Assembly: GCA_965224705.1 (NCBI GenBank)
Contig: OZ245056.1
Location: forward strand, 1,440,001-1,504,000
Source: Spirochaetaceae bacterium
Lineage (GTDB): Bacteria > Spirochaetota > Spirochaetia > DSM-2461
DNA length: 64,000 nucleotides
Reading direction: 5' to 3'
Position numbers and translations under genes: made by a program. This document shows positions 4,594 through 39,799 of the stretch, piece by piece. Under the pieces are notes generated by a model. It worked only from the letters and a program-made list of their open reading frames with translations, did not search any database and was not told where the DNA came from. The first letter of the stretch is position 1. The number at the start of each line of letters is the position of its first letter.

Positions 4594-4600
4594 AGAGCGC

Positions 4601-4702
4601 AGGGGGGATTCTCAAGGGGGACACCCCCTTGAGTCGTATTTTTCTTTGTTAAACTTTCTTTTTGTCGAAAAAAAAGAAAGTTTAGGCCCAGCGGCCCGAG
4701 CG
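4601..4702 (+). repeat. Invariant 102-nt double-hairpin element, copy 1
   Basis: CTCAAGGGGG-ACA-CCCCCTTGAG stem, T-rich run, AAACTTTCTTTT...AAAAGAAAGTTT stem; identical at 6659-6760, 8782-8883, 12520-12621. Confidence 0.95.
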
Positions 4703-4737
4703 ACCACCCACAAAAACATGCTACACTAAAATCCATT

Positions 4738-6507
4738 GTGAAAAAGAAACTGGAACAGGGCATCACCGATTTCAAGGAATTCATCAGTGAAAGCTGCTAT
4801 TTTGTCGATAAAACCCGTCTTATCGCCTATCTTATTGATCATCCCAGCAAGGTACACCTCATCACCCGCCCCCGCCGCTTCGGCAAAACCCTGAACCTCA
4901 GCATGATCCGCTACTTCTTTGAAGCCCCACCGTCGGGCGGTGAACGCATCGTTAGTAACGATGCCCCCCCCGAAGAGCCGTCCAATGCTGCGCTGTTCAA
5001 CGGCATGTCCATATCAAAACATCCCCGATGCCGCGAATACATGGGAAAATACCCTGTGATACACCTGAGTTTCAAGGACGTGAAAAAATCAACTTATCAA
5101 AACTGCATGGCTCTTATCAGGAACATGCTCTCTGCGGAATACCAACGGCATGAGTATTTGCAGAATTGTGGAGTGTTGCGCGATGCCGAAAAAGAGCTGT
5201 TTTCCAAAATATTGGACAAAAAAGGCAGCGATCAGGACTGCGAGGAATCCATAATTTTTCTGTCTATATGGCTCAAGCGCGCCTACGGCAAACCGGTCTA
5301 CATCCTTCTGGACGAGTACGACACCCCGCTGCACGCCGCCTACACCGACAACTTCTACGATGAAATGATCGCCTTCATCCGCAGCTTCATGGTGCAGAGC
5401 TTCAAGGACAACCCCAATTTGAAGCAGGCGGTGGTTATCGGCATACTCAAAGTGGCCCAGGAAAGCATCTTCAGCGACTTCAACAATCCAGCGGTGTCTA
5501 CCCTGCTCGATCCCGAAATGGAGGACTGCTTCGGCTTCACGGAACCCGAAGTGGAGGCCATGGCGGACTACTATGAGCTTGGGGACAGGATGGACGGCAT
5601 CCGGGAATGGTACAACGGCTACATCTTCGGCGGGGACACGATCATCTACAATCCCTGGAGCATAGTCAATTACCTCAGGAGACCATCGGCCGGACTGCGT
5701 CCCTACTGGGTGCACACCAGTGCCAACAGGATGGTCAAGGAAACACTGCAGCTGAACAAAAGGGACAGCCGGGAAACCATGGAAAGGCTGCTTAAGGGAG
5801 AGGAGGTCAGACGGGAAGTAGCGGTCAACATCGTCTATCCGCAGATACGAACCCGCCCGGATGTGGCATGGAGTTTTCTACTCCACGGCGGTTATCTCAA
5901 GGCCAGCGAAAGGCGGCAGCATGAGATGAGCCAGGACTACCGACTGGAAATTCCCAACCGCGAGGTGCGCTATTCCTACATGACCACAATCAAGGACTGG
6001 CTGGAGGAGGATGTGGAGGCGGGCGAGTCCTTTCATTCCTTTATCCGCGGCATCAGGGAAGGGAATGCTGCCCTGATCGAGAGGGGGCTGGGGAAGGTTC
6101 TCTTAAGCATGGCCAGTTATTACGACACCGCTGGTGAAGACGAAGAACTGGAGCGGGTGGAAGGCTTCTACCACGGTCTGGTACTGGGGATGCTGGCCTA
6201 CCTGAGCGGCGAGTACACGGTGGAGAGCAACCGGGAATGCGGCATGGGCCGCCCCGACATCGTATTGATTCAACGCGGCTCCGGGCGACCCGACCATGTT
6301 CTGCTGTTCGAGTTCAAACGGGAGCCTGCCGCCGGAACCACACCGCTCAAGCAGCTGGCACAGGAGGCCTATTCCCAGGCGGAGCAAAAATACCTGGAGG
6401 GGGTGCAAGAGAAGTGGAACCCGGGGGAGATTGTCATCTACGGAGTGGGCTTTCGCGGCAAGGCACTGGCATTGGAAGCAAGCGGGGAGAACGAAGCTCT
6501 CCCATGA
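4738..6507 (+). CDS. AAA-ATPase-like domain + PD-(D/E)XK nuclease protein, array copy 1
   Basis: Walker A RPRRFGKT, Walker B ILLDEYD, WYNGY and YNPWS motifs, C-terminal EGFYHG...SNRECGMGRPDI...FEFK (AAA-ATPase_like/PDDEXK_9 type). Confidence 0.92.
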   Translation: MKKKLEQGITDFKEFISESCYFVDKTRLIAYLIDHPSKVHLITRPRRFGKTLNLSMIRYFFEAPPSGGERIVSNDAPPEEPSNAALFNGMSISKHPRCREYMGKYPVIHLSFKDVKKSTYQNCMALIRNMLSAEYQRHEYLQNCGVLRDAEKELFSKILDKKGSDQDCEESIIFLSIWLKRAYGKPVYILLDEYDTPLHAAYTDNFYDEMIAFIRSFMVQSFKDNPNLKQAVVIGILKVAQESIFSDFNNPAVSTLLDPEMEDCFGFTEPEVEAMADYYELGDRMDGIREWYNGYIFGGDTIIYNPWSIVNYLRRPSAGLRPYWVHTSANRMVKETLQLNKRDSRETMERLLKGEEVRREVAVNIVYPQIRTRPDVAWSFLLHGGYLKASERRQHEMSQDYRLEIPNREVRYSYMTTIKDWLEEDVEAGESFHSFIRGIREGNAALIERGLGKVLLSMASYYDTAGEDEELERVEGFYHGLVLGMLAYLSGEYTVESNRECGMGRPDIVLIQRGSGRPDHVLLFEFKREPAAGTTPLKQLAQEAYSQAEQKYLEGVQEKWNPGEIVIYGVGFRGKALALEASGENEALP

Positions 6508-6658
6508 AGTCTGCGTCAACCGCTTCAAAGCGGTCCGTGCCCTGTCCTATGAAGAGGGACCTAACCCATAAATATAACGACATCTCCACTAAGCAAATTT
6601 TCCCCAAGTTCACCCAAAAGCCCCTGAAGAGAGCAAAAAACCCGCTTTTCACGAAGCG

Positions 6659-6760
6659 AGGGGGGATTCTCAAGGGGGACACCCCCTTGAGTCGTATTTT
6701 TCTTTGTTAAACTTTCTTTTTGTCGAAAAAAAAGAAAGTTTAGGCCCAGCGGCCCGAGCG
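6659..6760 (+). repeat. Invariant 102-nt double-hairpin element, copy 2
   Basis: Identical to 4601-4702. Confidence 0.95.
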
Positions 6761-6794
6761 GCCACTCACAAAACCATGCTATGCTAAAGATGTC

Positions 6795-8561
6795 ATGAAA
6801 AAGAATCTGACTCAGGGCATCACCGATTTCAAGAAATTCATCGACAATAACTGCTACTTTGTTGATAAAACCCATTTCATCGGTTGCCTTATCGACGACC
6901 CCAGCGAAGTGCACCTCATCACCCGCCCCCGGCGCTTCGGCAAAACCTTGAACCTGAGCATGATCCGTTACTTCTTCGAGGCCCCACCGTCGGGCGGTGA
7001 ACGCATCGTTAGCAGCGATCCACCACCCAATGCCTCATTGTTCAATGGCATGTCCATATCAAAACACCCCCAATGCCGCGAATACATGGGGCAGTATCCG
7101 GTAATACACTTGAGTTTCAAGGATGCCAAGGGTTCTTCGCATACGGAGTGCATGGAGATCATCAAGGATATGCTCTCCGCAGAATATCAGCGACATGAAT
7201 ACTTGCAGGACTGTGAAGTGCTGCGCGAAATTGATAAAGAATTATTTCTCAAAATATCGAATAAAAAAGGCACTGATCAGAACTGCGCACAGTCGATAAA
7301 ATACCTTTCCTCCTGGCTTAAGCGCGCCTACGGCAAACCGGTCTACATCCTTCTGGACGAGTACGACACCCCGCTGCACGCCGCCTACACCGACAACTTT
7401 TACGATGAAATGATCGCCTTCATCCGCAGCTTCATGGTACAGAGCTTCAAGGACAATCCCAATTTGAAGCAGGCGGTGGTTATCGGCATACTCAAGGTGG
7501 CCCAGGAAAGCATCTTCAGCGACTTCAACAATCCAGCGGTGTCCACCCTGCTCGATCCCGAAATGGAGGACTGTTTCGGCTTCACGGAACCCGAAGTGGA
7601 GGCCATGGCGGACTACTATGAGCTTGGGGACAGGATGGACGGCATCAGAGAATGGTACAACGGCTACATTTTCGGCGGGGACACGGTCATTTACAATCCC
7701 TGGAGCATAGTCAATTACCTCAGGAGGCCATCGGCCGGGCTGCGTCCCTACTGGGTGCACACCAGTGCCAACAGGATGGTGAAGGAAACGCTGCAGCTGA
7801 ACAAAAGGGACAGCCGGGAAACCATGGAGAAACTGCTCAGGGGAGAGGAAGTCAGGCGTGAGGTGGCACTCAACATCGTCTACCCGCAGATACGAACCCG
7901 CCCGGATGTGGCATGGAGCTTCCTGCTCCACGGCGGCTATCTGAAGGCCAGCGAAAGGCAGCAGCACGAGATAAGCCAGGACTACCGGCTGGAAATTCCC
8001 AACCGAGAGGTACGCTATTCCTACATGACCACAATCAAGGACTGGCTGGAGGAGGATGTAGAGGCAGGCGAGTCCTTTCATTCCTTTATCCGCGGCATCA
8101 GGGAAGGGAATGCCGCTTTGATCGAGAGAGGTCTGGGTAAGGTTCTCCTGAGCATGGCCAGTTATTACGACACCGCTGATGCCGTTGGTGACGACGAGGA
8201 AATGGAGCGGGTGGAGGGCTTCTACCACGGCCTGGTACTTGGAATGCTGGCCTACTTAAGCGGCGAGTACACGGTAGAGAGCAACCGGGAATGCGGGATG
8301 GGCCGCCCCGACATCGTATTGATTCAGCGCGGCCCTGGGCGGCCCGATCATGTTCTGCTGTTTGAGTTCAAACGGGAGTCTGCCGCCGGAACCACGCCGC
8401 TAAAGCAGCTGGCGCAGGAGGCCTATTCCCAGGCGGAGCAAAAATACCTGGAGGGGGCAAAGGAGAAGTGGAACCCGGAGAAAATTGTCATCTATGGGGT
8501 GGGCTTTCGCGGCAAGGCACTGGCTTTGGAGACAAACGGGGAGAACGAAGCTCCCCCATGA
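6795..8561 (+). CDS. AAA-ATPase-like + PD-(D/E)XK nuclease protein, array copy 2
   Basis: Same motifs as copy 1, intact ORF. Confidence 0.92.
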   Translation: MKKNLTQGITDFKKFIDNNCYFVDKTHFIGCLIDDPSEVHLITRPRRFGKTLNLSMIRYFFEAPPSGGERIVSSDPPPNASLFNGMSISKHPQCREYMGQYPVIHLSFKDAKGSSHTECMEIIKDMLSAEYQRHEYLQDCEVLREIDKELFLKISNKKGTDQNCAQSIKYLSSWLKRAYGKPVYILLDEYDTPLHAAYTDNFYDEMIAFIRSFMVQSFKDNPNLKQAVVIGILKVAQESIFSDFNNPAVSTLLDPEMEDCFGFTEPEVEAMADYYELGDRMDGIREWYNGYIFGGDTVIYNPWSIVNYLRRPSAGLRPYWVHTSANRMVKETLQLNKRDSRETMEKLLRGEEVRREVALNIVYPQIRTRPDVAWSFLLHGGYLKASERQQHEISQDYRLEIPNREVRYSYMTTIKDWLEEDVEAGESFHSFIRGIREGNAALIERGLGKVLLSMASYYDTADAVGDDEEMERVEGFYHGLVLGMLAYLSGEYTVESNRECGMGRPDIVLIQRGPGRPDHVLLFEFKRESAAGTTPLKQLAQEAYSQAEQKYLEGAKEKWNPEKIVIYGVGFRGKALALETNGENEAPP

Positions 8562-8781
8562 AGTCTGCGTCAACCGCTTCAAAGCGGTCCGTGCCCGCCC
8601 CCTGTCCTATGAAGAGGGACCTAACCCATAAATATAACGACATCCCCACTAAGCAAATTTTCCCCAAGTTCACCCAAAAGCCCCCGCCAAGCCGTCAGTC
8701 CAAATCACCCCGCACCTTTCGTCCTTCGCAACCAACCCCAAAGCCCCTGAAGAGAACAAAAAACCCGCTTTTCACGAAGCG

Positions 8782-8883
8782 AGGGGGGATTCTCAAGGGG
8801 GACACCCCCTTGAGTCGTATTTTTCTTTGTTAAACTTTCTTTTTGTCGAAAAAAAAGAAAGTTTAGGCCCAGCGGCCCGAGCG
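8782..8883 (+). repeat. Invariant 102-nt double-hairpin element, copy 3
   Basis: Identical to 4601-4702. Confidence 0.95.
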
Positions 8884-8910
8884 GCCACTCACAAAATCAT
8901 GCTACACTAA

Positions 8911-10595
8911 CCCCTATTTCTCACCAACATAAAATTGCATAAAAATCCTGGAGAATTTCTGTTCTCTCCGCTAATATATCAAACAAAAAGTTTCCAGTTG
9001 ATTGATCCTTGTTATTTCCGTCCAATTTAAGTCGATTTCTTCTGATTTTTTTTGCATTTTTTCAACCCTCGGTGCACAGCTTCCCCAGGGAATCCAGATG
9101 AGAACTATCAACTGTTTTTATTACCGCTCAGATGGCCCGGGATGTTCGTATCCAGATGTCCCACCAGGGAAAACTCTCCGGAAGACTGATCCAGACTCGG
9201 CGAACCGTAATCTTTACAGCGGCCGAAACTTTAAGCATCCTTAATCGGATTGTAGAGGACATGCTTCGAGTTTCATCACCGCTGACCTGCAGAATTGTTC
9301 TTCGAAGATGGACAAAGAAAATATAGGCGATTGTCGAGAAATACAATCGAAGCTGATTCGAACTCATCCACCAGGTGGAGGTGCGGTCGGCAAACAGATA
9401 AAGCTGCTGTTCTTTGATGCGATTCTCCATATCGCCGCGTGCACAGTAGACATCTTCATACAGCGATTGGGCATCCCCTTCTTCAGCAGAAATGTCCGTC
9501 ACAATAAAGCGGGGATTTTTCTTGCCCGGCAGATGTTCCACCCTGGCAATGACATCCCGATTGCGACTCCAACTGCTTTCGGTCTTCCAGGAAAAACGGG
9601 TAAAAACACGTTCGGCTTCTTTGCTTTTACCGAAGAGCTTTTCAGCCCTGACCATCTGCGGATCAATCTTCTTCAGCAGCCTCGTATTTCCTGCCATACC
9701 GGTGATATATCTGACTTTCAATATCTCACACTGTTTCAGGATACTCTCACGGCAGAAGCCCGAGTCTCCACGAAAAATGATACGAACATCAGGAAATTTG
9801 GCCCTGATCGCGCCAACCAGCTTGACCAGAATCTCTTCGGTACCCTCACAGGCATCCAGGCTGGACGGCCGCAGCCGGGCGATCAGGGGAAAATCATCAC
9901 AGAACACGTAGAGCGGAAGGTAGCAGTAGTGATCGTAATATCCGTGAAAAAACCGCTGCTGCTGCTCGCCGTGGATGGGAATGTCGGTGGCATCAAAATC
10001 CAGAATCAGGGTTTCCGGCGGCTCCTCGAAACTCTCAAGAAACAGTTGACAGAGAAGCTCTTCAATCCCCCTGGCATCCCAGGTGATTTTGCTGTACCGG
10101 TCCCTGGTTTTTTCATCCAGCTCATGACCGAGTTCCAATCTGTTCAGGGTGCTCTTTCCGGCAACTGGCGTTTTATCATCCCGCCCACATATATATTGAA
10201 GCAGTGGATCTTCGCGCAATTGTTCATGATCATTGAGATCTTCATAGCCCTGACAGATTCCGAAGATTCTCTGTTTCAGAAGAGTAGCCAGGCTATGTGT
10301 AATTTTTTCCTGATCTCTTTTATCGGTGAAAAAATCTGACAGCTTTTCAATAATTCTGTGCTTCTGCTCAACCTGCTGGAGGAGAAGAAATCCGGCATCG
10401 GAACTGTTGACCTTGCCGTCATTCTTTACAATAATTTTGCGGGATTTTCCGATTTCCATCCCTTGCAATTCGAGCTGATGGGCTTTACACTCTGTATTAG
10501 CAAAGCGGGCTTCTTTTTGTTTGTTATTTTTTTTCATGTAAATATTTTAGCATGGGAAGCCTGCTTTGTCTCAAGGTCTTGGTGAGAAATAGGGG
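8911..10595 (-). mobile_element. IS1380-family insertion sequence, 1685 bp
   Basis: 17-bp perfect TIRs CCCCTATTTCTCACCAA (8911-8927)/TTGGTGAGAAATAGGGG (10579-10595); CTAA target duplication (8907-8910, 10596-10599); empty site visible upstream of copy 1. Confidence 0.95.
9128..10537 (-). CDS. IS1380-family DDE transposase
   Basis: GYEDLNDH, LDFDATD, FHGYYDHYCYLPL, RGDSGF, YCARGDMENRIKE motifs. Confidence 0.93.
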   Translation of the reverse strand: MKKNNKQKEARFANTECKAHQLELQGMEIGKSRKIIVKNDGKVNSSDAGFLLLQQVEQKHRIIEKLSDFFTDKRDQEKITHSLATLLKQRIFGICQGYEDLNDHEQLREDPLLQYICGRDDKTPVAGKSTLNRLELGHELDEKTRDRYSKITWDARGIEELLCQLFLESFEEPPETLILDFDATDIPIHGEQQQRFFHGYYDHYCYLPLYVFCDDFPLIARLRPSSLDACEGTEEILVKLVGAIRAKFPDVRIIFRGDSGFCRESILKQCEILKVRYITGMAGNTRLLKKIDPQMVRAEKLFGKSKEAERVFTRFSWKTESSWSRNRDVIARVEHLPGKKNPRFIVTDISAEEGDAQSLYEDVYCARGDMENRIKEQQLYLFADRTSTWWMSSNQLRLYFSTIAYIFFVHLRRTILQVSGDETRSMSSTIRLRMLKVSAAVKITVRRVWISLPESFPWWDIWIRTSRAI

Positions 10596-10607
10596 CTAAA
10601 ATCCATC

Positions 10608-12362
10608 ATGAAAAAGAATCTGACTCAGGGCATCACCGATTTTAAGGAATTCATCGACAATAACTGCTACTTTGTCGATAAAACCCATCTCATAGCGCAT
10701 ATTATCAATGACCCCAGCAAGGTGCACCTCATAACCCGCCCTCGGCGCTTCGGCAAAACCCTGAATTTAAGCATGATCCGCTACTTCTTCGAGGCCCCGC
10801 CGCCGCACGGCGACAGCAGCGATCCACCACTCAATGCTGCACTGTTCAACGGCATGTCCATATCAAAACATCCCCAATGCCGCGAATACATGGGGAAATA
10901 CCCTGTGATACACTTAAGTTTCAAGGACGTGAAAAAATCAACATATCAAAATTGCATGGCTCTTATCAGGAACATGCTCTCCGCAGAATACCAACGGCAT
11001 GAGTATTTACAAAATTGTGGTGTATTGAATGACAGGGAAAGGGTAAAATTTGAGAAGATACTGTACAATGAGGGCAGCGATCAGGACTGCGAGGAATCCA
11101 TAACCTTTCTGTCTATATGGCTCAAGCGCGCCTACGGCAAACCGGTCTACATTCTTCTGGACGAGTACGACACCCCGCTGCACGCCGCCTACACCGACAA
11201 CTTTTACGATGAAATGATAGCCTTTATCCGCAGCTTCATGGTGCAAAGCTTCAAGGACAATCCCAATTTGAAGCAGGCGGTGGTCATCGGCATACTCAAA
11301 GTGGCCCAGGAGAGCATCTTCAGCGACTTCAACAATCCGGCGGTGTCCACCCTGCTCGATCCCGAAATGAAGGACTGCTTCGGCTTCACGGAACCCGAAG
11401 TGGAGGCCATGGCGGACTACTATGAGCTTGGGGACAGGATGGACGGCATCAGGGAATGGTACAACGGCTACATCTTCGGCGGGGACACGGTCATCTACAA
11501 CCCCTGGAGCATCATCAACTACCTAAGCGCTCCGGAGGCCGGACTGCGTCCCTACTGGGTGCACACCAGTGCCAACAGGATGGTGAAGGAAACGCTGCAG
11601 CTGAACAAAAGGGACAGCCGGGAAACCATGGAGAGGCTGCTTAAGGGAGAGGAGGTCAGGCGGGAGGTAGCGGTCAACATCGTCTACCCGCAGATACGAA
11701 CCCGCCCGGATGTGGCATGGAGCTTCCTGCTCCACGGCGGTTATCTCAAGGCCAGCGAAAGGCAGCAGCACGAGATAAGCCAGGACTACCGGCTGGAAAT
11801 TCCCAACCGAGAGGTACGCTATTCCTACATAACCACAATCAAGGACTGGCTGGAGGAGGATGTAGAGGCAGGCGAGTCCTTTCATTCCTTTATCCGCGGC
11901 ATCAGGGAAGGGGACGCGACCCTGATAGAGGAGGGTCTTGGGGAGATTCTCCTGGGCCTTGCCAGCTTCCACGATACCGCCTCCCAGGGCGAAAAAGAAG
12001 AAAAGAAGCGAGCGGAGGGCTTCTACCACGGACTGGTACTGGGGATGCTGGCCTACCTGAGCGGCGAGTACACGGTGGAGAGCAACCGGGAATGCGGCAT
12101 GGGCCGCCCCGACATCGTATTGATTCAGCGCGGCTCCGGGCGGCCGGGTCATGTTCTGCTGTTCGAGTTCAAACGGGAGCCTGCCGCCGGAACCACACCG
12201 CTCAAGCAGCTGGCACAGGAGGCCTATTCCCAGGCGGAGCAAAAATACCTGGAGGGGGCGCAGGAGAAGTGGAACCCGGGGGAGATTGTCATCTACGGGG
12301 TGGGCTTTCGCGGCAAGGCACTGGCATTGGAAGCAAGTGGGGAGAACGAAGCTCTCCCATGA
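10608..12362 (+). CDS. AAA-ATPase-like + PD-(D/E)XK nuclease protein, array copy 3
   Basis: Same motifs, intact ORF; separated from its promoter by the IS. Confidence 0.92.
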   Translation: MKKNLTQGITDFKEFIDNNCYFVDKTHLIAHIINDPSKVHLITRPRRFGKTLNLSMIRYFFEAPPPHGDSSDPPLNAALFNGMSISKHPQCREYMGKYPVIHLSFKDVKKSTYQNCMALIRNMLSAEYQRHEYLQNCGVLNDRERVKFEKILYNEGSDQDCEESITFLSIWLKRAYGKPVYILLDEYDTPLHAAYTDNFYDEMIAFIRSFMVQSFKDNPNLKQAVVIGILKVAQESIFSDFNNPAVSTLLDPEMKDCFGFTEPEVEAMADYYELGDRMDGIREWYNGYIFGGDTVIYNPWSIINYLSAPEAGLRPYWVHTSANRMVKETLQLNKRDSRETMERLLKGEEVRREVAVNIVYPQIRTRPDVAWSFLLHGGYLKASERQQHEISQDYRLEIPNREVRYSYITTIKDWLEEDVEAGESFHSFIRGIREGDATLIEEGLGEILLGLASFHDTASQGEKEEKKRAEGFYHGLVLGMLAYLSGEYTVESNRECGMGRPDIVLIQRGSGRPGHVLLFEFKREPAAGTTPLKQLAQEAYSQAEQKYLEGAQEKWNPGEIVIYGVGFRGKALALEASGENEALP

Positions 12363-12519
12363 AGTCTGCGTCAACCGCTTCAAAGCGGTCCGTGCCCACC
12401 CCCTCTCCTATGAAGAGGGACCTAACCCATAAATATAACGACATCCCCACTAAGCAAATTTTCCCCAAGTTCACCCCAAAGCCCCTGAAGAGAACAAAAA
12501 ACCCGCTTTTCACGAAGCG

Positions 12520-12621
12520 AGGGGGGATTCTCAAGGGGGACACCCCCTTGAGTCGTATTTTTCTTTGTTAAACTTTCTTTTTGTCGAAAAAAAAGAAAGT
12601 TTAGGCCCAGCGGCCCGAGCG
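12520..12621 (+). repeat. Invariant 102-nt double-hairpin element, copy 4
   Basis: Identical to 4601-4702. Confidence 0.95.
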
Positions 12622-12655
12622 GCCACTCACAAAACCATGCTATGCTAAAGATGTC

Positions 12656-14416
12656 ATGAAAAAGAATCTGACTCAGGGCATCACCGATTTCAAGAAATTC
12701 ATCGACAATAACTGCTACTTTGTCGATAAAACCCATTTCATCGGTTGCCTTATCGACGACCCCAGCGAAGTGCACCTCATCACCCGCCCCCGCCGCTTCG
12801 GCAAAACCCTGAACCTGAGCATGATCCGTTACTTCTTCGAGGCCCCGCCACCGGGCGGCGATAGCAGAGATCCACCACCCAATGCCTCATTGTTCAATGG
12901 CATGTCCATATCAAAACATCCCCGATGCCGCGAATACATGGGAAAATACCCTGTGATACACCTGAGTTTCAAGGACGTGAAAAAATCAACTTATCAGAAT
13001 TGCATGGCTCTTATCAGGAACATGCTCTCTGCGGAATACCAACGGCATGAGTATTTACAAAACTGTGGAGTGTTGCGCGATGCCGAAAAAGAGCTGTTTT
13101 CCAAAATATTGGACAAAAAAGGCAGCGATCAGGACTGCGAGGAATCCATAATCTTTCTGTCTATATGGCTCAAGCGCGCCTACAAAAAACCGGTCTACAT
13201 CCTTCTGGACGAGTACGACACCCCTCTGCACGCCGCCTATGCCGACAACTTTTACGATGAGATGATCGCCTTCATCCGCAGCTTCATGGTGCAGAGCTTC
13301 AAAGACAACCCCAATTTAAAGCAGGCGGTGGTCATCGGCATACTCAAAGTGGCCCAGGAGAGCATCTTCAGCGACTTCAACAACCCAGCGGTGTCCACCC
13401 TGCTCGATCCCGAAATGGAGGACTGCTTTGGCTTCACGGAACCCGAAGTGGGGGCCATGGCGGACTACTATGGGCTTGGGGACAAGATGGACGGCATCAG
13501 GGAATGGTACAACGGCTACATCTTCGGCGAAGACACGGTCATCTACAATCCCTGGAGCATAGTCAATTACCTCAGGAGGCCATCGGCCGGGCTGCGTCCC
13601 TACTGGGTGCACACCAGTGCCAACAGGATGGTCAAGGAAACACTGCAGCTGAACAAGAGGGACAGCCGGGAAACCATGGAGAGGCTGCTTAAGGGAGAGG
13701 AGGTCAGACGGGAGGTGGCCCTCAACATCGTCTACCCGCAGATACGAACCCGCCCGGATGTGGCATGGAGTTTCCTGCTCCACGGCGGCTACCTGAAGGC
13801 CAGCGAAAGACGGCAGCACGAGATAATCCAGGACTACCGGCTGGATATTCCCAACCGCGAGGTCCGCTATTCCTACATGACCACAATCAAGGACTGGCTG
13901 GAGGAGGATGTGGAGGCGGGCGAGTCCTTTCATTTCTTCATCCGCGGTATCAGGGAAGGGAATGCCGCCCTGATTGAGAGAGGACTTGGGAAGGTTCTCC
14001 TGAGTATGACCAGTTATTACGACACCGCTGATGCCGCTGACGATGACGAGGAAATGGAGCGGGTGGAAGGCTTCTACCACGGTCTGGTTCTGGGGATGCT
14101 GGCCTACCTGAGTGGCGAGTACACGGTGGAGAGCAACCGGGAATGCGGGATGGGCCGCCCCGACATCGTATTGATTCAGTGCGGCCCTGAGCGCCCCGTC
14201 CATGTTCTGCTGTTCGAGTTCAAACGGGAGTCCGCCGCCGGAACCACGCCGCTAAAGCAGTTGGCACAGGATGCCTATACCCAGGCGGAGCAAAAATACC
14301 TGAAGGGGGCACAGGAGAAGTGGAACCCGGGGGAGATTGTCATCTACGGAGTGGGCTTTCGCGGCAAGGCACTGGCTCTGGAGGCAGGCGGAGGGGCGTT
14401 TCGCGGCCAGTTCTGA
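12656..14416 (+). CDS. AAA-ATPase-like + PD-(D/E)XK nuclease protein, array copy 4
   Basis: Same motifs; last ~9 residues differ from copies 1-3. Confidence 0.92.
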   Translation: MKKNLTQGITDFKKFIDNNCYFVDKTHFIGCLIDDPSEVHLITRPRRFGKTLNLSMIRYFFEAPPPGGDSRDPPPNASLFNGMSISKHPRCREYMGKYPVIHLSFKDVKKSTYQNCMALIRNMLSAEYQRHEYLQNCGVLRDAEKELFSKILDKKGSDQDCEESIIFLSIWLKRAYKKPVYILLDEYDTPLHAAYADNFYDEMIAFIRSFMVQSFKDNPNLKQAVVIGILKVAQESIFSDFNNPAVSTLLDPEMEDCFGFTEPEVGAMADYYGLGDKMDGIREWYNGYIFGEDTVIYNPWSIVNYLRRPSAGLRPYWVHTSANRMVKETLQLNKRDSRETMERLLKGEEVRREVALNIVYPQIRTRPDVAWSFLLHGGYLKASERRQHEIIQDYRLDIPNREVRYSYMTTIKDWLEEDVEAGESFHFFIRGIREGNAALIERGLGKVLLSMTSYYDTADAADDDEEMERVEGFYHGLVLGMLAYLSGEYTVESNRECGMGRPDIVLIQCGPERPVHVLLFEFKRESAAGTTPLKQLAQDAYTQAEQKYLKGAQEKWNPGEIVIYGVGFRGKALALEAGGGAFRGQF

Positions 14417-14470: not shown

Positions 14471-14477
14471 TCGTCCA

Positions 14478-14530
14478 GGAGTCTGTCGGATTTTAAGGAT
14501 TCGAGGCGATTTTGATGATTTCTCCTGATG
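14478..14530 (+). repeat. Truncated MITE family A (left end)
   Basis: GGAGTCTGTCGGATTTTAAGGATTCGAGGCGATTTTGATGATTTTCTCCTGATG aligns to the start of 47805-47966. Confidence 0.8.
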
Positions 14531-14600
14531 CTGTCTCAACCAAATTCTCATTGAAAATGAAGCGTGTGTCAAGCCTTTATATGAAAAAGCCATTTTCTAT
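14524..14600. repeat. Right copy of ~80-bp diverged direct repeat (partner 861-940)
   Basis: Aligns to 861-940. Confidence 0.8.
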
Positions 14601-31673: not shown

Positions 31674-32759
31674 TCAGCCTCCCCCCGGTAATTCTGCCGG
31701 ATGGATTACATAGCAGGCGCCGCCTGAACCTTCAAGCCAGCGCTGCTGCAATTGATCGCAGCGGTAGGTTCTTTTTACCTGGGAATCGGTTCTTCCCGCA
31801 GGGTCCTGAACGAATGCGCCTCCGGCTCCATCAAAACCGGTGATGACAATGAGGTGGCCCGCAGTGGAGGGGATGGGACTGCCGTCCAGGGGGCGATCCT
31901 CTTCCCTGTTCCAGGACACACTCATAACCAGGGGGATGCCCTGGCTAAGGTAGGGAAGGAGGTCATCCAATCTGGAAAAACGGCGGACCGTACTCCTCAG
32001 TCCCAGGCTTCCCACATAGGCTGTATTGAAACTCCAGTTGCCGTTTCCCCCGTAGATGGGATCGTAGGTTCCCTCCAGGGCTTCTTTTAGTCCCTCCTCA
32101 CTGTTTTGCGAATACCCCCGCCAATAGTAAAGGATCATGCATAAACAGGTGGGGCTGCACCAGGAACGTCCTCCTTTGCTGTAGTTAAACTGAGATTGAA
32201 CCGGTACATCTTCAATGCAAACCCTCTTTAGTATGTCCCCCGGGAGGGAAGATCCTGCCCGGGGCATAGGCGAACTAAAGGTGAGGGCCGCGGCGTTGAG
32301 AATGGGCATTGCCCCTCCACTGACCTGGTTGAGCCTTATCATCATCTGAAAACGCCGACAGCATCGTTTGAGCGTCAGGGTGTCGGTGGAAACGGCGGCA
32401 TCTTCATCCTCCTGATCTATGAAGGAGAACTTCTGGATCAAGGCTTTCGGAGGAGCCCATACCGCCATCCGGTACCAGGTTGTCCACCGATGGCCGATCT
32501 CCCCCCTCAGGAATACTTCCATCCACCCATGGTTCCCGCAGAGGGCATTCCACGAAGGGATTATCTCTTGAATATCGAAGGGGCTTTCCACCACCGGGCT
32601 GAGCAGTTCCACCGTCCCGGCAATGGGAAGGGTGCTCTTCCACCCCAGGGAGGAGTAAACTGACTCTTGATCTAAGGCATTTTTCCCGGTAGTCTGAAAG
32701 TCGAAGAGGCGGAATCCTGTTTTGTAAGCACCATCATTTTGCTGTATCATGTTATCCAT
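31674..32759 (-). CDS. C39-like cysteine peptidase
   Basis: SQ...WCSPT, GNWSFN, GHLIV, QDPA catalytic pattern. Confidence 0.85.
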   Translation of the reverse strand: MDNMIQQNDGAYKTGFRLFDFQTTGKNALDQESVYSSLGWKSTLPIAGTVELLSPVVESPFDIQEIIPSWNALCGNHGWMEVFLRGEIGHRWTTWYRMAVWAPPKALIQKFSFIDQEDEDAAVSTDTLTLKRCCRRFQMMIRLNQVSGGAMPILNAAALTFSSPMPRAGSSLPGDILKRVCIEDVPVQSQFNYSKGGRSWCSPTCLCMILYYWRGYSQNSEEGLKEALEGTYDPIYGGNGNWSFNTAYVGSLGLRSTVRRFSRLDDLLPYLSQGIPLVMSVSWNREEDRPLDGSPIPSTAGHLIVITGFDGAGGAFVQDPAGRTDSQVKRTYRCDQLQQRWLEGSGGACYVIHPAELPGGG

Positions 32760-32905
32760 GCAAGTTTGTAAGATACTAAAAAGTCGCGGGATAAACCAGT
32801 TGTTTAACTCCTTTGTGTGTTTCCCCTTGTTTTTCTGATACTACACTATCATGGTGGAGTTTTAAAGCTCTCTGAATTCTAAGATTTTCCATTGGGAGGC
32901 CATTC

Positions 32906-34390
32906 ATGCACGAATTGGGACGCCCCGGTGCTTTGTTCATGCTCGGGTTGTACGGATGCGAAAAACTTGGCGAAAAAGATAAAAGACTCCTTGAGCTGAT
33001 TAAACCTTCCGGGATAATTCTTTTTAAGAGAAATATCCAGACCGCCGAACAGGTTGATCGCCTCATTGATGAAACCGCAAGGTTTCTTGGGTACAAACCG
33101 CTTATTTCGATTGATCAGGAAGGAGGCATCGTCAGCCGCCTCACCGAGGGCTTCACTGTTTCTCCGGGAGCCATGGCCCTGGGCCGGACGGGGAATAGCC
33201 AATATGCCTACGAGGCGGGGAAAATACTGGGAAAAGAGATGAAAGCCCTGGGCATCGACTGGGATCTGGCCCCGGTTGTCGATATTAACAACAATCCGGA
33301 TAATCCGGGGATCGGAATCCGTTCTTTTGGCGATAAAAGAGAAATCGTCACCGAATTTGCCGGGCAGTTTGTCCGCGGCCTGGAAACCCAGGGCATTATT
33401 TCCTGTCTGAAGCACTTCCCCGGTAAGGGACGGGTAAGGATAGATGCCCATCTGGATATGCCGGTTCTCGACGTGGAAGAAGCCGTGCTATTTGAAGAAG
33501 AACTCCATCCGTACATGAAGATTAAGTCCCCCAGCTGGATGCCAAGTCATGTCCATTATTCGGCACTCCAGACCAAGAAGGAACCCGCTTCGGTGAGCCG
33601 AGAAATCCTCACCGATTTAGTGAGGGGACGCCTTGGATATGGCGGTGTCCTTGTTGCCGACGACATGACGATGGGGGGTGTAACCAACTACTATTCGGTT
33701 GCCCAGGGGGTCAAGCTTTCCTTCTATGCCGGCATGGATGTCCTGCTTATCTGCCATGATTATGATAAGCAGGTTGAGTCCTACAATGTTCTTGTAAAAG
33801 AGGTCGAACAAAATGAGACGGCCCGAATGAGGATGGAGGAATCCCTCAAACGGATAGAAGGCCTCTTTCTTTTGAGGAACGTCGAAAAACCTTCCAGGGA
33901 TTGCCTGGGAGAACCGGCCCATCTTCAGGTGATGAGGGAGATAAGCGGTAAGGCCGTTGAAATATTGAAGAACGAAGATAAGGCCATTCCCCTCAAAGGT
34001 GTTGATCTGATTTATGCGGTTGATTTGGGAACCGGAAAAGTTCAGGTGGAGGATAAAAACCGGGAGGCTTGCCCACCGGCTTTCCGGCTTTCCCGTGAAA
34101 CAGGGGCCCCCGTGACAAGAATTACACAGGAAATTCTTGCCGCCCCTACCGAAGCAGCCAGGGCCGCCGGGGGCAAGAAGGTTGTTATCTTCACGGAAAA
34201 TGCCCACCTCGACGGAGGGATGAAGGCTTTTATCCGGGAACTTTCCCGTAAGGCAGGGGTGTTGACGCTATGTGCGTTGAGGAATCCCTACGACCGGGAC
34301 ATTGAGGGGGTACGGAATGCGGTCTGCTCCTATGGATATACGCCGATGCAGCAGGAGAGTATCGTTGAGCTGATGCTGGGTGGGGGATAA
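32906..34390 (+). CDS. nagZ: GH3 beta-N-acetylhexosaminidase, copy 1
   Basis: IDQEGG, APVVD, RSFG, KHFPGKG-x4-DAH, ADDMTM. Confidence 0.88.
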   Translation: MHELGRPGALFMLGLYGCEKLGEKDKRLLELIKPSGIILFKRNIQTAEQVDRLIDETARFLGYKPLISIDQEGGIVSRLTEGFTVSPGAMALGRTGNSQYAYEAGKILGKEMKALGIDWDLAPVVDINNNPDNPGIGIRSFGDKREIVTEFAGQFVRGLETQGIISCLKHFPGKGRVRIDAHLDMPVLDVEEAVLFEEELHPYMKIKSPSWMPSHVHYSALQTKKEPASVSREILTDLVRGRLGYGGVLVADDMTMGGVTNYYSVAQGVKLSFYAGMDVLLICHDYDKQVESYNVLVKEVEQNETARMRMEESLKRIEGLFLLRNVEKPSRDCLGEPAHLQVMREISGKAVEILKNEDKAIPLKGVDLIYAVDLGTGKVQVEDKNREACPPAFRLSRETGAPVTRITQEILAAPTEAARAAGGKKVVIFTENAHLDGGMKAFIRELSRKAGVLTLCALRNPYDRDIEGVRNAVCSYGYTPMQQESIVELMLGGG

Positions 34391-34589
34391 TCAAACGATG
34401 TCCGCCTCTGAACTTTAATGAAAAATTACGATATTTCATTAAGCACATTTCTTCTTTCTGCTGCCTCTGAGCCTGTATGCCTGGAGGAACGCATCGCTGA
34501 CAAACTGGGCGTCATTCTTTTTGGCAAAGGCCTTTCGGCCTGGGGAATTTTCCTATGCTTTTTTATTGACCCATGCTACACTCTATACC

Positions 34590-36353
34590 ATGAAGAAACG
34601 CTTGTCCCAGGGTATCTCTGATTTCAAGAAATTCATCGACGAAAACTGTTATTTTGTCGATAAAACCCATCTCATCAAGTATCTTATCGACAATCCCAGC
34701 GAAGTACACCTGATTACCCGCCCCCGGCGTTTCGGCAAAACCCTGAATTTGAGCATGATCCGCTATTTCTTTGAGGCTCCCTGTCCGGGGAGTTCCGAAC
34801 CGGCTAACGGCTATCTCTTTGACACTATGTCTATACGCGATCATCCCCGGTGCGTCCAGTACCAGGGGCAGTATCCGGTGATACATTTAAGTTTCAAGGA
34901 TGCCAAGGGGGCTTCGTTTGATGAATGTATGGAATTGATCAGGGATATGCTCTCCACGGAATACCGTCGGCATGGGTATTTACAAGATTGTAAAGTATTG
35001 CGTGATTCTGAGCAGAAAGTTTTCTCCAAAACAATTGATAAAAACGGCACAGATCAGGATTATGCACAATCCATAAAACACCTCTCATCCTGGCTAAAGC
35101 GAGCCTACGGCAAGCCAGCCTACATTCTGCTGGACGAGTACGACACTCCCATGATGGCCGCCTACCTTGGGGGGTATTACAGCCAGATGGCATCCTTCAT
35201 CCGCAGCTTCATGGTACAGAGCTTCAAAGACAACCCCAACCTGAAGCAGGGGGTGGTCATCGGCATACTCAAGGCGGCCCAGGAGAGCATCTTCAGCGGC
35301 TTTAACAATCCGGCGGTGTCCACCATCCTGGACCCGGACATGGAGGACTGCTTTGGATTCACCGATGGCGAAGTGGTGAAAATGGCATCGTATTACGGCC
35401 TGAAAGACAGAATGGAGGAGATACGGCAGTGGTACAACGGCTATGTTTTCGGCAGCGGCACCGTTATCTACAACCCCTGGAGCATTGTCAGTTTTCTTAA
35501 CAAGCCAGCAGCGGGTCTACGCCCCTACTGGGTAAACACCAGCGACAACAGGCTGGTGCGGGAGGCCCTGCAGTTGGAAAGAAACGAATCCATCGAAATT
35601 GTCTCCCGCCTGCTGGGGGGAAGGGAGGTGAGAAAAGAGGTCTACCACCACATCGTCTACCCGGAGATAGCGAAGAGCCCTGATGCGGTGTGGAGTTTTC
35701 TTCTCCATGGCGGCTATCTGAAGGCCACCGACCGGCAGCAGCATGAATACGGCCAGGATTATCGTCTGTCGATTCCAAACAAAGAGGTGCACTATGTTTA
35801 CAACAAGATCATTAAATCCTGGCTGGATGACGAGTTTCAGGCCAGGGAAGATTTTCTGGCCTTCATCCGGGGCGTGAGGGAGATAAATCCCCGCCTGATT
35901 GAGCTCAGCCTGACTGCGATGCTGCGGGTACTGGCCAGCTTCCACGACATGGCCCCAACCGGGCGCCCGAAGTCGGATAAAAGGAATAAGAAAAGCGGAG
36001 AGATGTTCTACCACGGCCTTCTTCTGGGCTTGCTGGCCTATCTTGGCGGAGAGTACATGGTGGAGAGCAACCGGGAATACGGCACCGGTCGGGCGGACAT
36101 AGTGCTGACCAAGCGCGCCGCCCGGGGGTGTAGCTGGAGCGACGAGGCTCTGCTCTTTGAACTGAAGCAGGAAGACAGCGGCAGCACAACCCCGCTGAAG
36201 CAGGTGGCCGCCGAGGCCTTAAGTCAGGCCATGGAAAAGTACACGGACGGCGCAATGGCCAGGTGGCAGCCCAAACGCTCTCTGGTGCTGGGGGTGGGTT
36301 TTCGCGGGAAGGATCTGGCACTGGTCTACGAAAGCCTGCCGCATGCTGGCTGA
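34590..36353 (+). CDS. AAA-ATPase-like + PD-(D/E)XK nuclease protein, dispersed copy 5
   Basis: RPRRFGKT, ILLDEYD, SNREYGTGRADI...FELK; start aligned to paralogs (MKKRLSQG). Confidence 0.92.
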   Translation: MKKRLSQGISDFKKFIDENCYFVDKTHLIKYLIDNPSEVHLITRPRRFGKTLNLSMIRYFFEAPCPGSSEPANGYLFDTMSIRDHPRCVQYQGQYPVIHLSFKDAKGASFDECMELIRDMLSTEYRRHGYLQDCKVLRDSEQKVFSKTIDKNGTDQDYAQSIKHLSSWLKRAYGKPAYILLDEYDTPMMAAYLGGYYSQMASFIRSFMVQSFKDNPNLKQGVVIGILKAAQESIFSGFNNPAVSTILDPDMEDCFGFTDGEVVKMASYYGLKDRMEEIRQWYNGYVFGSGTVIYNPWSIVSFLNKPAAGLRPYWVNTSDNRLVREALQLERNESIEIVSRLLGGREVRKEVYHHIVYPEIAKSPDAVWSFLLHGGYLKATDRQQHEYGQDYRLSIPNKEVHYVYNKIIKSWLDDEFQAREDFLAFIRGVREINPRLIELSLTAMLRVLASFHDMAPTGRPKSDKRNKKSGEMFYHGLLLGLLAYLGGEYMVESNREYGTGRADIVLTKRAARGCSWSDEALLFELKQEDSGSTTPLKQVAAEALSQAMEKYTDGAMARWQPKRSLVLGVGFRGKDLALVYESLPHAG

Positions 36354-36400
36354 TATTGAACACCGAGTCCATTGAGACGGGTCGTACTCCTGGAAAGGCA

Positions 36401-36988
36401 TCAGTCGGAATCGGGCAGGCCGTTCATGACATAGGTTCCTGTGTAAAGGAAATCACACAATCGTGACGGATTGTACATATAAGAAGGATATCCATAATCG
36501 ACCCAATTGGAGATTTCTTTATCATATGCGGCATCCATGCGGATAATTTTCCCGTCTTCATATCGGATCAGCTGATCACTCTTATAAGTCTTATCATTAT
36601 AGGTAATCCTAATACCGAGATAACGAACAGCTTCTTTTATATCGGTTTTTTTCAATTTAGATTCTTCATGTCCCGGAGAGTGAGGGGATTCCACTATGAA
36701 TCTAATGGATCCTTCCTCTAGTTTTTCAGTATCATAATACCCCTCATCGTTCCAAATTCTGTAAAACCGGGATATCCAGATATTGTCATGTATAACCCCG
36801 CCCTCCTGATCAACAACATCTATATGTATACTCTCCAGGTGTTCATCCAAATTCGGCAAATTGTTAATCTGGACCGTAAAACCGAAGAAGTAAATATCCG
36901 GATCACTGTCCGCAGGCAGTTGAAGACAGGATGTAAGTAATAACACCGCAAAACCAATGAAAATAAGCAAATGAATTGATTTTTTCAT
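36401..36988 (-). CDS. Hypothetical lipoprotein
   Basis: MKK...LLLTS-C lipobox, GAGAGG RBS, AT-rich. Confidence 0.75.
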   Translation of the reverse strand: MKKSIHLLIFIGFAVLLLTSCLQLPADSDPDIYFFGFTVQINNLPNLDEHLESIHIDVVDQEGGVIHDNIWISRFYRIWNDEGYYDTEKLEEGSIRFIVESPHSPGHEESKLKKTDIKEAVRYLGIRITYNDKTYKSDQLIRYEDGKIIRMDAAYDKEISNWVDYGYPSYMYNPSRLCDFLYTGTYVMNGLPDSD

Positions 36989-37077
36989 ATTTTTACACCT
37001 CTCGAAGATGAAGAAGCCGGATGATGCTTCAATTCGCTGAAGGCATTATCTTCGGATACTCTAATATGTCCTGAGAA

Positions 37078-37146
37078 GCAGATGAACATCGATAAGAATC
37101 TACGAAAACTGGCGAAAATCGGCGAAATCTGCGAAATCTGCGGATA
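37078..37146. repeat. Short tandem/palindromic GCAGAT...ATCTGCG repeat element
   Basis: Five 9-10 nt units (AATCTACGA, AAACTGGCGA, AAATCGGCGA, AATCTGCGA, AATCTGCGG) preceded by inverse arm GCAGATG. Confidence 0.7.
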
Positions 37147-37311
37147 AAACAGGTTGATTCTCTCAATACAGGACACAATGTCAATAGTTATGGGTGGTTC
37201 CGACAGCCAATGATTCCTTCACCAATTCCGTATTCTCAAGGGTTGAAAAGCAGTTTTTTGACTGAAGAGTCGATCAGACGAGTGGTTGAGGTAAAAAAGG
37301 AGGACGTGTTT

Positions 37312-37495
37312 GTGAAAAGAATGTATTTCTCCCTATTGGCAGTCGGCCTGCTACCTTGTGTCCCTGGAGCCTTGCCGCCCGGGGTGATGAAGAAGCAGGC
37401 AAGAATGGAGAGATAACGGTTGAATCCGGGGTGAAAAGGGGCGGCATTGTGAATGTAACCTCTTCAAAACAGGGAGTTTTGATTAAAAATTTCAA
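37312..37495 (+). pseudogene. Truncated, frameshifted duplicate of the 5' end of the family-5 SBP gene
   Basis: Aligns to 24985-25169 with a 1-nt deletion in the signal-peptide codons; upstream region from 37232 aligns to 24893. Confidence 0.9.
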
Positions 37496-38101
37496 GCCTT
37501 TGGGAGAAACCCATACCGCCATTCGGTACCAGGTTGTCCACCGAGGGCCGATCCTCCCCCTCAGGAACACTTTCATCCACCCATGGTTCCCGCAGAGACA
37601 TTCCACGAAGGGATTATCTCTTGAATATCGAAGGGGCTTTCCACCACCAGGCTGAGCAGTTCCACCGTCCCGGCAATGGGAAGGCTCCTCTTCCATCCCT
37701 GGAGTCTGTCGGACTTACGCCTCACGGCTCGATTTTGCCCTTCTCTCCAGAAGCAAGCCTCCTGCTTGCTTCTGGAGAGCCGCCTTCGTTCGTTTTCGCC
37801 GCCATCCGTGGCGGCTTTTCCTCGCTATCGCTCGGCACTCTCTCAGGATGCGAGTCCATAGACTCGCATCCCCTGCTGCGGCGTTGCCAAAATACTCACG
37901 TAGCCCAACTACGCTCCGTTTTTGTCGCCTTGCACCAGGAAAAAATCATCAAAAATCGCCTCGAAGCCTTAAAGTCCGACAGACTCCCAGGGAGGAGTAA
38001 ATTGACTCTTGACCTGAAGCATTTCTCCCGGTAGTCTGAAGGCCAAGGAGACGAAAGCCTGTTTTGTAAGTGCCACTATTCTGCGGGATCATGTTATCCA
38101 T
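37492..38101 (-). pseudogene. Truncated duplicate of the C39-like peptidase gene, interrupted by a MITE
   Basis: Aligns to about 32438-32759 apart from the MITE insert. Confidence 0.9.
37701..37987 (-). mobile_element. MITE family A, long form with internal hairpin insert
   Basis: TIRs GGAGTCTGTCGGACTT/AAGTCCGACAGACTCC; absent from the paralogous site at about 32645. Confidence 0.9.
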
Positions 38102-38248
38102 GCAAGTTTGTAAGATACTTAAAAAATCGCGGGATAAACCGGCTGTTTAACTCCTTTGTGTGTTTCCCCTTGTTTTTCTGATACTACACTATCATGGTGG
38201 AGTTTTAAAGCTCTCTGAATTCTAAGATTTTCCATTGGGAGGCCATTC

Positions 38249-39733: not shown

Positions 39734-39799
39734 TCAAACAATGTCCGTCTCCCCCTGTGCTCCCTGTTTACCCATGGTCTGATTGAGTGGGAGAAGCGG

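Follow-up and report, generated by a model that had tools for sequence, protein, structure and literature searches.

DUF1703 proteins were defined by Knizewski et al. (2007; PMC1913061); the accessible part of that paper gives them an RPRRFGK[T/S] Walker A motif, a DEYD Walker B motif, a four-part architecture and nuclease motifs I–IV, and calls their middle region 'small helical'. Expansion of the family in Cardinium cCpun and a midge Rickettsia was reported by Siozios et al. (2019; PMC6387759), together with intragenic recombination (25 events in their Table S4, and the pairwise homoplasy index, PHI), as far as the accessible text goes. Movement of target recognition domains (TRDs) among the Type III mod genes of Helicobacter pylori was described by Furuta and Kobayashi (2012; PMC3467074, accessible part). 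Here we describe four DUF1703 genes, c1–c4, arranged head-to-tail at positions 4738–14416 of a 64,000-nucleotide (nt) stretch of a Spirochaetaceae genome (contig OZ245056.1, positions 1,440,001 to 1,504,000; hereafter the window, in whose coordinates positions are given unless marked otherwise). The four genes, encoding 584–589 amino acids (aa) each, are block-wise mosaics of one another. A fifth copy lies further downstream.

4738..6507, + strand: c1, DUF1703 ATPase-nuclease, 589 aa (PF09820, E 5.5e-44; PF08011, E 1.6e-11)
6795..8561, + strand: c2, DUF1703 ATPase-nuclease, 588 aa (modelled structure, see below)
10608..12362, + strand: c3, DUF1703 ATPase-nuclease, 584 aa
12656..14416, + strand: c4, DUF1703 ATPase-nuclease, 586 aa
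34590..36353, + strand: copy 5 (c5), DUF1703 gene of a different subfamily, 68–69% nt identity to c1–c4 and 93% to the paralog g2930376

The genome, a single contig of 3.0 Mb, contains 44 full-length open DUF1703 copies at 23 loci, plus fragments, and 16 of these copies, including c1–c4, form subfamily A. It also encodes FlaA, which marks its owner as a spirochaete. Both c1 and c5 pass the Pfam cut-offs for PF09820 (N-terminal) and PF08011 (C-terminal), and precomputed domains agree. All 44 copies have intact Walker A and B motifs as well as the E, D and ExK residues of the nuclease, whereas nuclease motif IV has Q in 42 copies and E in two; motifs and architecture are the same as those of the original definition. 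The family is present in 7 of the 31 genomes searched. Public runs labelled mollusc metagenome contain part of the window, which points to a host-associated source organism. The genome resembles the Cardinium and Rickettsia case in lineage-specific expansion, in the host-associated bacterium and in paralog recombination. That case, however, comprises 25 paralogs of 39% mean identity for which secretion was suggested, and the accessible text reports no homogenisation, breakpoints or modules, whereas the 44 copies found here form homogenised subfamilies with discrete module alleles that are conserved across species. As in the H. pylori mod genes (accessible part of PMC3467074), segments move between non-orthologous loci at conserved motif DNA, trees are incongruent and segments are shared across species, but five modules rather than one are involved here, no methyltransferase or cognate partner emerged when flanking open reading frames were compared among themselves, and the role in specificity is a predicted one. 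The accessible parts of five further papers (PMC3424549, PMC10952713, PMC8195603, PMC7159879 and PMC5760070) hold no functional test of DUF1703. Recombination among DUF1703 paralogs is therefore already published; no module map, cross-species allele analysis or functional test was found in the DUF1703 literature covered, which left out subscription journals, and what is added here is a sharper anatomy.

A preliminary description of the array had proposed that every pair among c1–c4 is closest in some segment, and counts of nt differences per codon segment confirm this for all six pairs. At the N-terminus (codons 1–64), c2+c4 are closest, as described, with 4 differences in 189 nt (other pairs, 21–33). 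In the following loop (codons 65–90) the closest pair is c3+c4 (10/78; other pairs, 15–40), while SGGERIVS is common to c1+c2, both groupings having been recognised before, as had those of c1+c4 in the Walker A–B segment (codons 97–183; 6/261 against 35–83) and of c2+c3 in the RQQHEISQ block (codons 388–435; 1/144 against 8–11). The remaining segments group c1+c2 (codons 184–300; 9/351 against 12–24) and c1+c3 (codons 520–600; 8/243 against 21–41). The pairing of c1+c3 and c2+c4 by VAVNI/VALNI, REPAAG/RESAAG and promoter type also holds. Two details were corrected: the c3 patch thought to be private has a related block in the paralog g1939079 and in five proteins of other assemblies (P0016, P0025, P0035, P0047 and P0050), and the pre-nuclease linker, said to differ in all copies, belongs to one allele class with small indels in c1, c2 and c4.

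The 62 informative sites of c1–c4 are clustered, forming 27 runs where 38.8 would be expected by chance (p=0.0008). PHI, one of the tests that the preliminary description had proposed, was significant both for the four copies alone (p=0.015) and for 16 close paralogs (p≤0.0005). When restricted to synonymous sites it was not significant for c1–c4 (34 sites, p=0.25) and was significant for the 16 paralogs (p=0.0002), so that protein-level convergence is not the cause. A single tree for all segments, which would have spoken against mosaicism, was not found: whichever of five segments is analysed, the approximately unbiased test rejects the whole-gene tree as well as the trees derived from the remaining four (p-AU <0.001).

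Exchange with paralogs elsewhere in the genome, raised as a possibility in the preliminary description, is supported by two exact tracts shared with g1112652, a paralog on the minus strand 338 kb from the array (G000:C1:1110895-1112652, where G000 denotes this genome).

7047..7368 (ends approximate), + strand: 318-nt tract of c2 identical to g1112652
11832..12219 (ends approximate), + strand: 385-nt tract of c3 identical to g1112652

Exact tracts between dispersed paralogs measure 385, 318, 579, 494 and 272 nt. The likeness of blocks in c2 and c3 to copy 5, which had also been pointed out, exists but is old, and copy 5 was rejected as the donor: the c2 segment differs from it at 58 of 210 nt and the c3 linker at 62 of 132 nt, whereas neither differs from g1112652. 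Short tracts near codons 69–84 (among 79 of 231 flagged pairs) were shared-gap artefacts and were left unused.

Comparison of the copies delimits five variable modules, which are placed as follows on the predicted structure, NBD and HD1 denoting the nucleotide-binding domain and helical domain 1.

6834..7049, + strand: module I (c2 residues 14–38; N-terminal helix region on the model) and the indel-rich loop (65–85)
7122..7310, + strand: module II (c2 residues 110–172), helical insert between Walker A and B; in other copies at 5077–5265 (c1), 10926–11114 (c3) and 12974–13162 (c4)
7533..7745, + strand: module III (c2 residues 247–317), last NBD strand and HD1, two coupled halves; in other copies at 5488–5700 (c1), 11337–11549 (c3) and 13385–13597 (c4)
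7950..8036, + strand: module IV (c2 residues 386–414), wing hairpin of the winged helix and the next helix
8103..8210, + strand: module V (c2 residues 437–472), pre-nuclease helical linker
11907..12011, + strand: module V in c3, another allele

The c2 model (mean predicted local distance difference test score, pLDDT, 92) comprises an NBD (residues 1–255), HD1 (261–312), a winged helix (327–400), a helical part (404–460) and a PD-(D/E)XK nuclease (467–580). Its best structural matches, over residues 3–420, are folds of the signal transduction ATPases with numerous domains (STAND) type: 2qen (PAB2304; Z 18.1, rmsd 3.7, 300 residues aligned), 2fna (SSO1545; 16.5), plant resistosomes (14.7 and 13.4) and EfAvs5 (11.8), with MalT also among the matches. 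Orc1/Cdc6 proteins score about 10, and Orc1 was the top match in another comparison (E 2e-4); as these proteins share the NBD–HD1–winged helix arrangement, fold separates STAND from Orc1/Cdc6 imperfectly. The C-terminal part, a barely tested region, gives a weak match to the CidB nuclease domain (Z 8.5). The modelled fold is therefore like that of STAND proteins and nucleotide-binding leucine-rich repeat receptors (NLRs), followed by a nuclease, although fold likeness by itself says nothing on function. We take the module II insert to be the 'initiator-specific motif' that makes ring contacts in STAND oligomers. The region called 'small helical' in the accessible part of PMC1913061 is, on the model, a STAND-like winged helix plus helical linker. 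According to the accessible part of PMC4599002, Orc1/Cdc6 proteins touch DNA via their NTPase and C-terminal regions. With the STAND and NLR proteins (including Avs and plant NLRs) the DUF1703 proteins share the modelled fold and the presence of an effector domain; in contrast, they have no TPR, LRR or WD40 sensor, their effector is C-terminal, and variation lies inside the NTPase module and the wing rather than in repeats. Paralog exchange is also a feature of fungal NLRs, for which the accessible part of PMC13449251 reports it together with balancing selection and introgression.

The modules reassort almost independently, with 49 combinations among 63 subfamily-A proteins, a share inflated by the use of 90% cluster representatives. 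These are 47 outside proteins among the matches listed (of the first 65 matches, 8 came from the genome itself, and the other 57 were reduced by 8 members of subfamily A2 and by 2 partial proteins) and the 16 subfamily-A copies of this genome. Cramer's V is near the null level between modules and 0.5–1.0 within modules II and III. The two halves of module III are coupled over 46 residues (V 0.94), while modules IV and V, only 23 residues apart, are not (V 0.16). In module III an acidic half goes with a basic half (rho -0.85; 38 distinct pairs, which are non-independent), and c3 is among the few recombinants between these halves.

The 47 proteins of other assemblies carry the same alleles in new combinations. 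In the complete congeneric genomes G001 and G009, the latter the sister of G000, arrays of 6, 4, 6 and 3 copies consist of members that are near-identical outside the same modules, and short-read contigs from other runs pass from one allele to another at the module borders (7651, 7720–7746 and 8108). The proteins c1, c2 (partial call), c3 and g1112652 are each recorded on one contig only, and no record was found for c4 as queried. A methyltransferase-like and a restriction-enzyme-like open reading frame (ORF), labels which we assume from motifs, follow a G009 array (L013 14193-15816), and in a genome of another genus (G015) a distant ATPase family with shorter proteins (~525 aa, 24–33% identity) forms tandem arrays (L019, L006 and L012).

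Perfectly matching runs between subfamilies reach their greatest length at the Walker A/B anchors (median 16–30 nt, against 9–20 nt in the C-terminal half), and these lengths match where exchange crosses subfamilies: an out-group allele is nearer than the farthest in-group allele in 56 of 56 genes for module II and in 52 of 56 for module III, but in none of 56 for the nuclease core. Trees of modules II and III show 14 and 11 label changes, respectively, against the minimum of 6 for the nuclease and winged-helix core, and module III rejects the monophyly of subfamilies A and B (p-AU 0.008 and 0.018, respectively; 2 of 15 cases tested). The genome encodes both RecA and MutS, and no ORF family lies beside more than a few of the 23 loci when flanking ORFs are compared among themselves. 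Ordinary RecA-type homologous recombination between conserved anchors is the likely agent. In the G009 array, a unit of two genes occurs twice, the repeated genes showing 0 and 1 differences, which indicates that unequal crossover also acts. Of the 'ongoing segmental gene conversion' first proposed, segmental exchange of discrete modules therefore stands, whereas strict non-reciprocal conversion and its direction are left without support; we infer that non-reciprocal conversion is combined with unequal crossover, and the exact tracts and single-contig proteins suggest that exchange is ongoing.

Codon models gave omega values of 0.17–0.24 in the modules, of no more than 0.25 in any region, and of 0.14–0.15 for recent changes in modules II, III and IV, which disagrees with the view of the modules as fast-evolving under positive selection. 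Synonymous and amino-acid diversity are both raised in the variable blocks; together with the low omega, this identifies the modules as old, conserved allele types. Within one genome, alleles differ at 30–59% of residues on backbones that are 2–6% apart. All nine groups with at least three copies contain two to five module-II classes but one nuclease class, and eight of the nine hold two or three module-III classes. Classes found in more than one genome number 5 of 18, 5 of 8 and 3 of 11 for modules II, III and IV, respectively. The same two alleles of module II and the same two of module III occur in subfamily C of G000 and in the G009b genes; their synonymous distances are 0.18–0.26, compared with 0.23–0.28 for the backbones and 0.22 for recA, as expected for inheritance through the species split. 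The module-II classes of G009a are absent from the other G009 copies (10 G009 genes examined). These data suggest that balancing selection keeps several allele types. A DUF1703 gene has evidently also been transferred recently between species, as the copies in G009 (G009c) and G012 (L015 2339, L018 4053) differ at 9 of 1713 nt; this gene adjoins a transposase-like ORF, presumably of the IS30 type.

We lean towards a joint reading, in which modules are exchanged within the 44-copy family and their alleles are kept by selection for the specificity of a predicted NLR-like defensive nuclease. Homologous recombination at conserved anchor motifs would exchange variable modules between copies, and old alleles would be retained since they set the specificity of an activation-dependent nuclease. 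The NBD insert (module II) and the wing (module IV) may read the trigger, either foreign DNA or a phage or mobile-element component, while module III would keep the ATP switch self-compatible and ATP-driven assembly would license the nuclease. Several points weigh against this reading. No positive selection was detected by windows, per-module codon models or recent changes. No partner gene recurs beside the loci, and there are no sensor repeats: the model leaves a helical stretch of just 57 residues from the winged helix to the nuclease, and a profile search found no repeat family. Sequence searches of NCBIfam and the PDB identified no relative that is named or has been tested, and PADLOC returned no match, a result that carries no weight in either direction. 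Across 119 distant homologs, conservation is lowest in the modules, so that relaxed constraint explains their location. Cross-species sharing can be due to introgression, given that the G009c and G012 copies are near-identical although recA differs at 0.62 of synonymous codons, and that G000-B and G001b are closer (0.31–0.38) than recA (0.59). The pairs used for cross-species allele distances were hand-picked, whereas the class-sharing count was systematic, and because whole-gene and backbone trees served to define the groups, the single nuclease class and the 0-of-56 result are partly circular. The charge coupling of module III is weakly present in distant homologs (rho -0.37) and may be an ordinary fold contact.

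Some of these points fit a neutral, porous-barrier form of concerted evolution, which we consider rather unlikely but a serious contender: exchange would be real but the modules no more than weakly constrained stretches between anchors, in which divergent blocks resist conversion, return by import from another subfamily, strain or species, and last without any selection for diversity. The coincidence of modules with low conservation, the anchor lengths that predict where exchange crosses subfamilies, the presence of MutS, the inter-species transfer and an omega never above 1 all agree with it. Because whole modules swap freely, however, drift should remove classes as backbones homogenise, yet nine of nine groups keep several, both alleles are common to sister species at distances like that of recA, and the G009a module-II classes differ from those of the other G009 copies. 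It is improbable that modules II and III are instead self-compatibility codes that decide subunit co-assembly or nuclease restraint in a selfish, addiction-type manner without a foreign trigger. The NBD insert and HD1, on which they lie, form ring contacts in Apaf-1/CED-4-type STANDs, and the acidic–basic pairing and the coupled halves of module III beside the unlinked modules IV and V would suit such codes; against this, modules II and III reassort freely, with V at null level, which disfavours a joint interface code, and the coupling in module III may be intramolecular. Block-wise exchange between conserved anchors would likewise result if silent cassettes supplied an expression site in a programmed manner, as in vlsE, pilE and msp2, and non-coding nuclease-tail fragments lie behind several arrays, but we regard such a system as very improbable: all 44 genes are intact, 40 with their own -10-like box, the fragments hold the nuclease tail and not the variable modules, and neither a signal-type N-terminus nor a recurring recombinase neighbour was seen. 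That the assembly merged several strains, or that its repeats were mis-polished, is hardly credible. The source may be of the metagenome type, none of the contigs reaches across the array and no public run holds half of the sequence words (the best holds 44%, a share that cannot show strain difference), but all 44 frames are open, and reassortment recurs in the 47 outside proteins, at the same modules in both congeners and in short-read contigs that switch allele at module edges. The chimeric assembly that the preliminary description named as a refuting condition is thus not borne out by independent assemblies and short-read contigs.

The intergenic regions contain further elements.

4722..4727, + strand: putative -10 box TACACT of c1
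6780..6785, + strand: putative extended -10 box TATGCT, 9 nt before the c2 start
8903..8908, + strand: displaced putative -10 box TACACT of c3
6655..6770, + strand: ~115-nt double-hairpin element (z -4.2) upstream of c2, with a terminator-like stem; copies at 4596–4712, 8778–8893 and 12516–12631
8911..10595, - strand: IS1380-family insertion sequence (IS); transposase at 9128–10537 (NF033539, over cut-off)

In 40 of 44 copies the motif.G.TA...T occurs 7–10 nt upstream of the start codon, against a background of 1.4%, which suggests separate, nearly leaderless transcripts for each copy. The IS1380 element, with 17-nt terminal inverted repeats, a CTAA target duplication and an identical copy elsewhere in the genome, sits between c2 and c3 and separates the c3 -10 box from its start codon; IS1380 copies look patchy as well, in keeping with a general agent of recombination. 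The double-hairpin element matches the genome at 27 forward sites, which adjoin family genes or fragments; it stands ahead of most subfamily A genes and has no match in Rfam. The arrays of G001 and G009 lack it, so it is unnecessary for the mosaic. Behind several arrays, non-coding nuclease-tail fragments (G000:C1:506884-507486, 1645686-1645886 and 2215445-2215642) are joined to this element at short microhomology, a join also found in three other runs. The fragments were considered as an Rpn-like internal antitoxin, a candidate rejected because their ATG lies in a different frame and microhomology with the hairpin element accounts for their origin. Directly after c4 lies a 55-nt repeat (14474–14531) with very many copies genome-wide. 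Copy 5 is flanked by two near-identical glycoside hydrolase family 3 (GH3, NagZ-like) genes (32906–34390 and 38249–39733), a direct repeat of ~1.6 kb in a peptidoglycan-recycling region (32740–39740). A few DUF1703 loci (G000:C1:1181375-1185000 and 1656600) adjoin ORFs that we take from their motifs to be Rpn/PD-(D/E)XK transposase-family-like and group II intron reverse transcriptase-like.

It is conceivable, though doubtful, that the family represents a sensor-less class of NLR-like immune nucleases, in which specificity would be combinatorial: a few ancient insert, lid and wing alleles would be maintained across species by balancing selection and reshuffled among dozens of copies into strain-specific repertoires, in parallel to the diversity of the major histocompatibility complex or of fungal NLRs. 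DUF1703 is a very large family of untested function, with 14,704 cluster representatives at E≤0.001. The copies described here are natural chimeras in which one module of 30–70 residues changes on an almost constant backbone, making what DUF1703 proteins recognise, and by which part, directly testable with few constructs.

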